Origin: Amphiscolops sp. MND2022
Lineage: Eukaryota
Length of the DNA: 64,000 bases
Reading direction: 5' to 3'
NCBI GenBank assembly: GCA_964187785.1
Contig: OZ076409.1
Coordinates: 67,768,001 to 67,832,000, forward strand
The stretch's first letter is position 1. Each line of letters starts with the position of its first letter. Position numbers and translations under genes: made by a program. Below, piece by piece: positions 2,463 to 6,381 of this stretch. The notes under the pieces are model-generated. The model searched no databases, was not told the DNA's origin, and saw only the letters and a program-made list of their open reading frames with translations.

Positions 2463-3737
2463 ATGAAAGATAACCAATAACAAGTTATCTCAAAGATAAC
2501 CTGTTGAAAACATTTCAAGAATCCTGGATTCTTCCTCTGATATATCTCCATCAGCTCCAAGTATGCCTTCTACTTCTGAATCTTCAGTATCAAACACTAC
2601 AAACTCTAGTAAAATAATTTCTACTACTCCTTCTAAAAGACCAAGATCATACGTTTCTGAAACAACATCTTCATCACTCCTTGACCACCTATAACTGAAA
2701 TACCTATAAACACTCGTACTCAACAAACCCCTATTAACACTCCTATAGTACACATACCAAACCCTGGAAGTGTTGAACAATACGTAAATTACAAACATCC
2801 TACAGCTATCAAAACTGTTAGACTACAACCACAGCTTAATCTTGTACAAATCCCTGATACGGAATATACAAAATTACTTTCACTGGAATTACCATCAGAA
2901 CTTAGTACTACTCCTTCAAAACTTTATCCACCATTAAAACTTCTTCGAAAACCTTCTACATCACTCTCAAATCTCTTAGACAAAACATCAGAATACACTC
3001 CATCACAAGATACACCAGGTTCACTTTTTGTACCACACCATAGATATAATCTTCGAGATCTTCCTTCACGAAGACTTAGTACAGACACTTCTACTCTTAA
3101 CCTATCTGCTCTTTCTAGCAATTCCACTTTAAGACTTCTACGACAACACGCACAACCGTTGTCTTCTGAAACAAATTCTTCTGACTTTATACCTTCTCCA
3201 TATTTTACATCTGGTTTTGACACCGCTTCTCTACTTTCCTCAGACGCTCAGACTGTATTCCTCTCCGGAAATCTTTTCTCAGAAGTTATAATACCTACTC
3301 CTGTCCCCGCACATATTAGAATACCTGAATATTATACTGCAGATCAATTTAGACCTCCAACTCCAAATTTTGCTGACTACCCACTTAGAGTCGATGGTAT
3401 AACCATCTACGACCCACAGCACGATCCTAGATTTCCTATCCTTGCAGAACGTTTCATTACAAACAACGACCTCTTATCTCACAAAAGAAAGGAAACAGAA
3501 CTAAAACGCCTTCAGACACCGAATCTAGAACTCAAATTTGAAGTCAAAGTCAAATTCCATGGTTTAAATCCACATCCAATATTTCACGTCTCAAAGATAG
3601 AACATAAAACCTCTCCTGCTCCTTTTGAAGTGATAAACATTGATTTTGAACGAGACCTCAATATACCTACTATCACATATGGCAAAATCATAATGTGTAA
3701 ACCATACTCAGGTCTTAAATATACTACCTCTTTTTGA
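2463..3737 (+). pseudogene. Ser/Pro/Thr-rich ORF between pol and env (accessory ORF or long Env leader), disrupted
   Basis: ORF 3159-3737 plus upstream codable S/T/P-rich stretches containing SKLYPPLK and RYNLR. Same base bias as the element. Confidence 0.5.
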
Positions 3738-3759
3738 ACTCCTTACAAACTCATTTATA

Positions 3760-6381
3760 ACAATTCTCATACTCTATTCACACTTATTTAACTTCACCTT
3801 TTCAATACCCATAACACCCTCTGACACAGAAAACTATCTTCCATCGGATGATCCGAATATTACAAATCTCATTATGATTGTGCAAAACAACACAATTCAA
3901 GACAATTTAATTTACTTAATGTAAAACAATGCACTGAAGCTCCTTCTGACATTAAACATGCAAGTGTTAAAGCCCAAAGCCCGTGTATATGTCCGCGCAA
4001 AAGCTAAACGCATCAAAGCTTTCAAATGTGTTGCTTATGCAAAGAAAGAAAAGAAAATATGCTTTCAAGGCTCCGTAAAATACCGTCGTGTTGATAGAAC
4101 AGTATGGAATCATAATACATTACCGCTTCCTGTTACTATTGATCAATTAAAATTTAAGAACATTATAAGACATTTAAATGGTACAAATGATAAAATATTG
4201 AACAACCTCCACTACAATAAAACTTTCACACTCTTAGAAGACCATTATTTTCAAGAACGATTAGAACAATATCAAACTCTTTTCACTGTATACCAATTGA
4301 ACAAAATGTACACAGGTACATTTACATTTATGCCCGCCGATAAAAACTGGATATATGACACTACTCAAAACCCTTATCATAACTGTCCTGCTCATCACCA
4401 ATTCGAAGTCAACCTAGTTAGTTGGCGATTAGAAATTTCCGAAGTAGAACTTACTTATGATGACACATCTAATGACATGATAATAGATGGACATACATTA
4501 CCCTGCTATTTTGCAGATGGTTTTTGTAAACCCACAACGAAAACCCCTTTTACTCTTGTTTGGTTCAATGATGAATATTGCCTAGTTTTCACATTACAAG
4601 ATTTCATTGGTCGTATGACTAAAATTGAAGATAGATATTAGATTGAAAATGACTCTTTTGTACATTCTCCACACTCAATAAAACCTAAAACAACTGCTGG
4701 TATCAAAGGTACAGAACATCCCTATGTTTATGCTCCTCACACACAACATCCAAATAACCCAATTCTTGCAAAATTTGAAGTTTTTCCTACAGCACAAATC
4801 TTTTGTGGTGAACCAGACCCTCTTTATTCTACACAATACTCAGACCTTTTTGTTACATACACTGATGGTTTCAATATGCATACAGGACAACCTAATCCCC
4901 ATTCTATGATTGATGAATATATTTCTGGTAAAATAGTATTGGACAATTCAAATAGTAAATTTATATTCCCTGCAATGAATGTTTCAAACAATTTTGCTAC
5001 CATTGACTATGATGCACATATTAACACGAAAACAGATTACACTATTAACCATGTTTTTAGATCAATGACAGTACAAGAACTAAACACTCTACATACCATA
5101 TGTGAATTAGAACGAAATCAACTTCTTACAATACTCGCAATGTCAGTACAAAATCCTCAACTTGCTGGTTTTCTTTTAACCGGTAATTGAAGTAATTTCT
5201 TATACGTTGAAGGCTCAACCGCCTGGCTTTATGACTGTCCTCATTTTTATCCCCTTTATATAACGCTGATAGATGCTTTGACCGTATACCTATACATTTT
5301 AAAGATACATTAATGTATGTTGATCCTATTACAAGACAAACTTGTGATTATGCTACACCAATTACATGTGATAATAATCCACGTAACATTATTGAACTAG
5401 AACTTGATTCAGACGATCAAGTTTTTTACATTCTTGGACCTGAACCTATTAAACGCAAACCTCCACTAATGTTTACACCTTCACAAATTAAAACTACAAT
5501 ACGTCCTAACACTTTTACAGCTCAAGATGCTGGTATATTTTCTAATGCAGAACTTGACCAATTTTGGAATCGTAATTTATTTCCAAACAATCTGATTCTA
5601 CACTTCAATTACTAGGCAAAGCTCTTAGCTATTCTTTCATTTCATCTAATACTCCTAATTACGATGCAGATTCCCCTCAAGATTCTGGTAATCCTTATAA
5701 TACATTACGTATAGGACTACATGATAAACTCTTGAATTTAACCCCTCTTTTTACGCCTACATGGTTTTCAGATGCTTTTATTGCACTTTTTGGATACCCT
5801 TGTTACATTCTCACACAATGTGGTATATGCTTTTCAACATTCCTTTTTGTACAAGCTACTCTTACACTCATTGTCAAACTTTACAAAACAATATCTATTA
5901 AATATAATCTAAAAAATAATATTACCTTATTTAGTTCTATAGCACATGGTTTTTTAATGTTCTTACAGCACGAATGGTCAATGACCTCAATGAGACTCAA
6001 AACAAAAAACCTAAAAGTACACTTTTAAAATCCAATTCCTTAGATAATTTTATTGACACTTCAGCACATTTAATTAATCATTCTACCGATGTTACTTCCC
6101 CTCCACCATTCTATACTAAACGTCCTAACAAAATTCAATTTCCTCAATTTAACTTGTTTCCAAAACGACACCAAAATTCTTACCAAAAAACAGCTCCACT
6201 TCCTTTCTCTCCTGTTCAACATCCTCCACTTCCTAATTATACTCCTAAAAACTTTCACCCGAATGACAATCTAACTCCTCAATATGACACTTTTATTAAC
6301 AATTCTGTCACCTCTACTACGGATACACCAATTAAAATATATTCACGGATAAACTATCCTTTTCCTCTTCCATCTTCTTGA
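3760..6381 (+). pseudogene. env: env-like class III fusion glycoprotein (chuvirus G / herpes gB-like), disrupted
   Basis: Signal-like hydrophobic stretch, then HYDC and a Cys-rich ectodomain with ICELERNQLLTILAMSVQNPQLAGFLLTG, AWLYDC and CFDRIPI...MYVDPITRQ...PITCD. C-terminal TM (GICFSTFLFVQATLTLIV) and Pro-rich tail. Fragments: 3958-4641, 4876-5190, 5313-5615, 5732-6028, 5974-6381. Confidence 0.75.

Follow-up and report, generated by a model that had tools for sequence, protein, structure and literature searches.

A decayed Ty3/gypsy element with a class III envelope gene and a probable five-gene layout, gag-pol / X / env / Y / Z

We analyzed a stretch of 64,000 nucleotides (nt) of DNA (hereafter the window; Amphiscolops sp. 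MND2022, assembly GCA_964187785.1, contig OZ076409.1, positions 67,768,001 to 67,832,000), which begins inside a Ty3/gypsy retroelement. On the + strand this element carries, in order, the 3' part of gag-pol, an open reading frame (ORF) that we call ORF-X, an envelope gene (env), and two further frames, ORF-Y and ORF-Z. A first-pass annotation of the same DNA had placed a Gypsy-type element with a class III envelope gene at 2463-6381. Its right-hand bound stands as the end of env, whereas position 2463 is an ATG with a stop after five codons and the ATG of env lies at 3679; the element itself continues beyond 6381, as far as about 9830. A strong C-over-G skew runs over the first ~9.8 kb (-0.2 to -0.5 per kb, about 0 beyond) with a change point at 9830, the base composition stays even (G 9-13%, C 22-27%) up to ~9830, where it shifts, and every long ORF of this part lies on the + strand. 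The DNA flanking the element has a GC content of 36-38%. In the window copy pol, ORF-X, env, and ORF-Y are interrupted, and ORF-Z is intact.

The 3' part of gag-pol (1-2413) encodes the end of RNase H, a bridge of about 300 amino acids (aa), an HHCC and DDE integrase, an SH3-like domain, and a tail rich in serine, proline, and threonine (S/P/T). It is broken by stops at 1106 and 2296 and by frame changes near 117, 1850, and 2300. The Pfam integrase core (PF00665) was found at 1109-1879 (E 3.5e-18) and SH3/p58 C-terminal domains at 1828-2295, bearing out the Gypsy-like integrase that had been reported upstream of env. With the pol piece as query, 10 proteins between 1065 and 3040 aa long were retrieved at E<=1e-30, and full-length Gag-Pol proteins of 2691, 2638, and 2637 aa were obtained from the cluster listing. 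When the longest of them (P0340) was compared with the window by tblastn, five main blocks aligned at 67-89% and both the alignment and the protein ended at 2410, which places the pol stop at 2413. The one-frame Gag-Pol comprises Retrotrans_gag, a CCHC knuckle (in two of three proteins), a DSG protease, a YIDD reverse transcriptase, RNase H, integrase, and SH3; the domain order gag, protease, reverse transcriptase, RNase H, integrase was found in P0340 and P0344, and the window itself spans the RNase H end to integrase. All Pfam families in Pol are of the gypsy type (RT_RNaseH, Integrase_H2C2, SH3_Tf2-1, Retrotrans_gag), and no Pao-named family, as would mark a BEL/Pao-type Pol, appeared at E<=1. 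The closest solved structure was Ty3 Gag-Pol (E 1.6e-48), ahead of foamy virus (6.5e-19) and murine leukaemia virus (1e-7), a ranking of similarity and not a tree. A single RNase H region with D-E-D-D kept is present in P0344 and P0354, and Pfam detected no second RNase H in the ~300-aa bridge. This bridge (window 116-1000; P0340 residues ~1865-2170) holds a conserved block of ~100 aa directly behind RNase H, with no Pfam match, which is possibly the 'mini' domain named in the available text of Chary and Hayashi (eLife 2026; PMC13524379). In P0340, P0344, and P0057, some 530-640 aa of Gag precede the capsid match, the first ~250 aa of which are alike across subfamilies and match no Pfam family, and an Arg/Ser-rich stretch follows the Gag zinc knuckle.

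A gap of 1265 nt (2414-3678) lies between the stop of pol and the ATG of env. It holds ORF-X (2500-3737), which encodes a separate soluble protein of ~410-420 aa with an S/P/T-rich N-terminal two thirds and a conserved C-terminal end. ORF-X appears to begin ~90 nt past the pol stop, overlaps the start of env by 59 nt, and contains one frame change near 2685, from where an open frame of 350 codons extends to 3737. Its homologues form 340 clusters, the best 120 of which are 63-94% identical; 86 of 148 fetched homologues share its stop, and 19 of those 86 measure 409-423 aa, extending upstream to ~2500. The maximum hydropathy is 1.0 and there is no hydrophobic segment. Among 40 ORF-X sequences no Pfam family was found in more than two and no matrix family matched any; PHROG gave no match, and the best PDB match had an E of 0.73. 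The protein carries the motifs PSAP, KRPR, (L/I)YPPL, and YNLR. A YNLR-type motif occurs in 111 of the 120 homologues listed, and the 30-residue block containing it is 85% identical, with 64% and 73% in the adjoining blocks.

Next comes env (3679-6381), a class III fusogen gene of the glycoprotein B (gB)/chuvirus-G type. In relatives it encodes ~900 aa with a signal, an ectodomain, a transmembrane region, and an S/P/T tail of ~140 aa with PPxY; in the window, what had been presented as a single gene has no gene-length frame, being broken by three stops (3691, 4639, 5188) and five frame changes (near 3870-3910, 3977, 5245, 5582, and 5955). A search of proteins of 743-2120 aa gave five env matches of 743-918 aa from clusters of 1758, 603, 1, 424, and 1 members, so that thousands of env sequences cluster with that of the window. 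P0002 maps onto window 3679-6378, and P0005 represents an env group at 50% identity. Among 47 env-cluster proteins listed, all 19 of at least 880 aa start with their own Met and a hydrophobic stretch. Four full-length relatives have N-terminal and C-terminal hydrophobic stretches and 15-18 Cys, in agreement with the Cys-rich membrane glycoprotein described earlier, and contain N-glycosylation sequons (10-13 in three, 3 in the fourth); their ectodomains are conserved at 89, 87, 58, and 30%, compared with 46, 40, 33, and 24% for the tails. The motifs YDC, CELER..L..L.M...NP..AG..L, and C.DRIPI...YVDPITR, singled out by the first-pass annotation, lie in the window frames and recur in all four, with substitutions in the most distant. 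One distant env (P0006, 743 aa, 29-30% identity, on a 3-kb contig) indicates that the env lineage reaches beyond the env family of the window.

The proposed class III type was borne out by several comparisons. PF24664, the Monjiviricetes fusion family, was found in two env pieces of the window (E 2e-8 and 0.017) and above cut-off in four of four tested relatives (E 1.4e-23, 2.8e-22, 2.5e-27, and 1.2e-39). By Atlas features env lies at 0.95 to PF24664 clusters, with gB and rhabdovirus G next, at a low recognition value. The env monomer model has a predicted local distance difference test score (pLDDT) of 37 and a predicted template modelling score of 0.28; with this low-confidence model, Foldseek placed glycoproteins of xinmoviruses, chuviruses, and rhabdoviruses and herpes gB at the top of its list (8-14% identity, best E 6.8e-14). 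Of the 50 best rows, 37 bore the name of a viral glycoprotein, of gB, or of a haemagglutinin, and 13 were unnamed or uncharacterised. The five best VIA-align hits were four gB chains and rabies G (Z 6.9-5.1), the best with a root-mean-square deviation of 11.2 over 171 aligned residues. Compared with PDB sequences, env matched nothing at E<=0.1. Together, the PF24664, Atlas, Foldseek, and VIA-align results support a predicted class III fusogen.

Two more frames follow env. ORF-Y, which probably spans 6652-7979 judging from its homologues, would encode a soluble protein of ~440 aa of no known family, with a low-complexity N-terminus, a basic patch, and a conserved core. It is interrupted by frame changes near 6880 and 7725 and a stop at 7388, and each of these breaks is bridged by some continuous natural copy. 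The frame 6716-7390 retrieved 216 representatives at E<=0.001 with identity down to 31%, and the full-length P0245 (447 aa) is 38% identical across 317 aa; the last ~250 nt are joined by weak matches only (E 0.11 and 0.048). No Pfam family was found in more than 2 of 65 ORF-Y sequences, PHROG gave one weak match (E 0.0099), PDB sequences gave none and Atlas none that was usable, and a model with a pLDDT of 54 gave no credible fold match (effectively C-terminal helices only). A Tudor-like barrel, considered for the region near P0245 residues 265-305, obtained no support. ORF-Z (8395-8847) is an intact frame for a soluble protein of 150 aa of no known family with a KKKK patch. It belongs to a 90% cluster of 19 members, 10 other full-length members of which are 89-93% identical to it; Pfam gave no match, and the search for homologues covered this cluster. 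The remaining 8848-9830 (+ strand) is a non-coding region that we presume to contain the 3' untranslated region and long terminal repeat (LTR), its end placed solely by the loss of C-over-G skew. Assuming a Gag-Pol as long as P0340, the element would measure about 15.5 kb from the gag start to the 3' end.

The codon composition of X, Y, and Z resembles that of pol and env, in that G at first codon positions exceeds G at third positions (0.15-0.23 and 0.04-0.12, respectively), a pattern absent from the 7980-8394 gap; the codon bias of ORF-Z is weaker than that of the other genes. In 1000 shuffles an open frame of 350 codons occurred in none and one of 224 codons in two. Since the DNA of a second copy was not found, linkage of the genes outside the window rests on chimeric products and on contigs of equal size. 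Six of the 120 listed ORF-X matches continue into env sequence, giving the order X to env in other copies, and one pol-tail product (P0109) continues into X. Among the listed proteins, pairs on equal-sized contigs number two for env and pol (47 x 37 entries), one each for env-X, pol-X, and X-Y, and two for X-Z. The link between this env family and a Ty3/gypsy pol family that the first-pass annotation had drawn is supported. Eight of eight full-length members of env group 2 are 97.9-99.6% identical to P0003, which fits recent spread. What is demonstrated is the order of the genes within the window, that X, Y, and Z are coding, and that env belongs to class III. Our overall reading, which we hold to be likely, is that the window contains one decayed member of a high-copy family of Ty3/gypsy elements with five genes in the order gag-pol / X / env / Y / Z; this confidence concerns the architecture and does not extend to the roles proposed below for X, Y, and Z.

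Several observations weigh against this reading. The env-Y, env-Z, pol-Y, pol-Z, and Y-Z combinations gave no equal-sized contig pairs (in small samples and on repeat-rich contigs), and the DNA of a second copy was not confirmed in viral, metagenome, or genome contigs. The window yielded no LTR boundary, primer site, or polypurine tract, purine runs of at least 10 nt are absent after 8593, the 3' end is not repeated anywhere in the window, and the 5' end lies outside it. ORF-X has no constant start, its N-termini varying among homologues, and its motifs were picked after the fact: other 4-mers are conserved as well as YNLR, and in 5000 shuffles YPx(1-3)L arose 2073 times, P[TS]AP 232 times, YxLR 370 times, and all three together 6 times. 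The matches of ORF-Y are mainly fragments, seven of seven checked being single-member clusters, and only one full-length Y was found. Finally, the env model is poor, and VIA-align Z values of 5.1-6.9 are in the range deemed common.

We weighed four other explanations. The first is that ORF-X is no free gene but is joined to Gag-Pol by recoding or splicing, as an additional integrase tail born by duplication. The short distance from the pol stop and the varying N-termini of full-length ORF-X proteins, as set by a bacterial gene caller, would fit this, as would the context of the X YNLR motif, which is similar to the tail of P0354, a divergent Gag-Pol (44% over 25 aa, E 0.34). However, the full-length Gag-Pol proteins terminate at their own stop and a profile comparison of X with Pol gave a probability of 0.3% (E 0.23), and we consider this explanation unlikely. 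Similarly unlikely, in our assessment, is a separate capture of env, as inferred by the first-pass annotation, in which a chuvirus or another negative-strand virus would have been the source and X may have come along as a matrix gene. The best Foldseek and Atlas matches are xinmovirus and chuvirus glycoproteins, and a late-motif gene placed immediately ahead of G is reminiscent of negative-strand viruses with their M-G order, but identity to those glycoproteins is 8-14% and no matrix family matched any of the 40 X sequences. In addition, the text of PMC13524379 available to us argues that gB-type env is anciently inherited. A third explanation, that Y and Z are part of a different repeat adjoining an ordinary gag-pol-(X)-env errantivirus, draws on the missing LTR bounds and on there being only three equal-sized contig pairs that link Y or Z to X, on long repeat-rich contigs; it appears quite improbable to us, given that the composition is even up to ~9830 and then changes, that all ORFs lie on the same strand, and that the divergence of Z from its relatives (89-93%) matches that of env from its closest (85-95% by block). 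The notion of the first-pass annotation that the S/P/T-rich region, in which LYPPL is present as noted there, serves Env as an extended leader is largely refuted and has very little probability left, for although X overlaps the env start and six X matches run on into env, ORF-X is its own reading frame with a common stop, those six products are truncated (254-426 aa, clusters of 1-2 members) as expected of frameshifted copies, all 19 full-length env proteins start downstream, and the search of 743-2120 aa proteins held no X-env fusion of ~1300 aa, itself weak evidence with five matches.

Under the five-gene reading, we propose that the element would work like an errantivirus with accessory genes. 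From what is known of the family, a single Gag-Pol polyprotein (CCHC knuckle, protease, YIDD reverse transcriptase, RNase H, integrase) would copy and integrate the RNA, and Env, probably made from a subgenomic RNA, would act as a membrane fusogen that passes particles between cells, plausibly from somatic cells into the germline, like Drosophila gypsy. For ORF-X the motifs are leads. Late domains of the PTAP, YPDL, and PPxY type recruit the endosomal sorting machinery ESCRT (PMC2958808, in the part available), and because P[TS]AP is missing from all three full-length Gag-Pol proteins, ORF-X might tentatively be seen as an adaptor for budding, similar to a matrix protein, with PSAP and (L/I)YPPL as its means of recruiting ESCRT. 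Foamy-virus Gag is described as binding the nucleosome acidic patch via Y537, L539, and R540, a YxLR pattern (PMC9040877 and PMC6042332, in part), and a YxLR motif occurs in the C-terminal tail of six of six Pol proteins checked; that ORF-X could be a chromatin tether using this pattern, shared with the integrase tail, seems rather doubtful and less probable than the budding role. ORF-Y and ORF-Z may be nuclear regulators of transcription or genomic-RNA export, by analogy with foamy accessory genes or with CERV of Cer1, an idea based on position, solubility, and basic patches that we put forward about as tentatively as the budding role of ORF-X.

In foamy viruses extra genes lie 3' of env, as in the window element. 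Compared with foamy viruses, lokiretroviruses, and Odin as described in the available text of PMC9040795, the window family shows one RNase H region by Pfam and a Pol closer to Ty3. A precedent for the proposed role of Y or Z is Cer1 of C. elegans, an LTR element whose CERV is a novel accessory nuclear RNA-export protein made from spliced RNA (PMC10309623, in part). Anakin, a BEL/Pao element (Dezordi et al., 2020; PMC7642597, in part), is likewise an LTR element with a chuvirus-like glycoprotein and differs in that the Pol of the window element is of the Ty3/gypsy type. The first-pass annotation held that gB-like envelopes are found mostly in BEL/Pao elements, which is not borne out by the accessible parts of PMC13524379, where gB-type env is reported in Ty3/gypsy elements of many phyla across metazoans (221 ENV_HSV (gB-type) Ty3/gypsy rows in the supplement) and an ancient origin is favoured. 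The pairing of Ty3/gypsy with gB-type env has thus already been described, and what is new relative to that text is the layout gag-pol / X / env / Y / Z. With these 'ancient errantiviruses' the window element shares a Ty3/gypsy pol followed by a gB-type env (signal, ectodomain, transmembrane region), multiple copies, and an invertebrate host. It differs in its 1265-nt pol-env gap with an extra gene, where the non-insect prefilter of the survey requires env to lie no more than 1000 nt from pol, within 10 kb; env directly after pol is in that text a search filter and not a definition. It also has two further genes after env and, compared by description, a length of at least 15.5 kb against 7.9-13.5 kb in 45 published elements, those with both LTRs among 76 of the 221 ENV_HSV rows and hence a partial, biased sample bounded by the survey method. 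The word 'accessory' has no occurrence in the main text of PMC13524379 as available to us, 'acoel' and 'Xenacoelomorpha' have none in the text, and six acoel or xenacoelomorph names have none in the supplements. Giant gypsy elements of the Burro/Ogre type and rotifer ORF3 elements occasionally have ORFs between pol and env or behind env, but the Burro env is in frame within the polyprotein and in the rotifer elements ORF3 encodes an esterase, an exonuclease, or an F-type env; the available parts of these papers describe no gB-type env flanked by three extra genes (PMC6431247, PMC5408684). Our literature search, outside which lay most subscription journals and Repbase, found no description of this element family or of env-bearing elements in acoels. 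Acoel genomes, as far as the accessible text of two papers tells, have 36.7-39.1% GC and are LTR-rich, with up to half LTR elements, and one has 28% Gypsy and 4.5% Maverick (PMC9911081, PMC6451197). The GC content of the DNA flanking the element agrees with these values without pinpointing the host, and by this analysis an acoel host is about as likely as not.

The rest of the window contains an intron-rich TRPM channel gene (13846-58478, + strand; exons 13846-14472, 31527-32477, 32554-33459, and 58017-58478) whose best PDB matches are animal TRPMs and which marks the host as an animal; its pieces are 98-99% identical on a second contig, probably the other haplotype. Within a TRPM intron lies an apparently intact Polinton/adintovirus-type element (37763-53587) with ~700-nt inverted ends at 99%, AGTAGT termini, and a 6-bp GCGGTC duplication. 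It encodes a double-jelly-roll capsid, an integrase, two A32-type ATPases, and an ORF of 1288 aa that we take, from its motifs, to be polymerase-like, Pfam having seen only an endonuclease VII domain. Segmental repeats that are almost identical occupy ~18400-28050, their periods being about 1.9, 2.2, and 3.2 kb; they include two matches to tRNA-like sequence on the - strand, at 23993-24073 and 27175-27255.

The first-pass annotation spoke of a little-known lineage, and this holds, yet owing to three extra genes that it had not noticed. What our analysis adds is the layout, in which env is surrounded by three conserved genes that belong to no known family, and this in an element family whose env sequences run to thousands. 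Such an element would fail the prefilter of the one systematic survey, by its pol-env gap and its length as that filter appears in the accessible text of PMC13524379, and the number of elements of this kind may thus be underestimated. Should the host be an acoel, it would fill in a phylum absent from the available parts of that survey. At its boldest, the case could be one of a five-gene 'complex' Ty3/gypsy virus of ~16-17 kb, in which a gB-type fusogen is paired with a separate budding protein of matrix-like type and with two nuclear regulators encoded toward the 3' end, and which has recently spread to thousands of copies in an acoel, an early-branching animal outside the sampling of the published survey, and hence of an independent route to the complex-retrovirus layout outside Retroviridae; as a whole we rate this picture as doubtful. 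The family would offer a system beyond flies and nematodes for studying the budding of enveloped retrotransposons and their control of RNA export.

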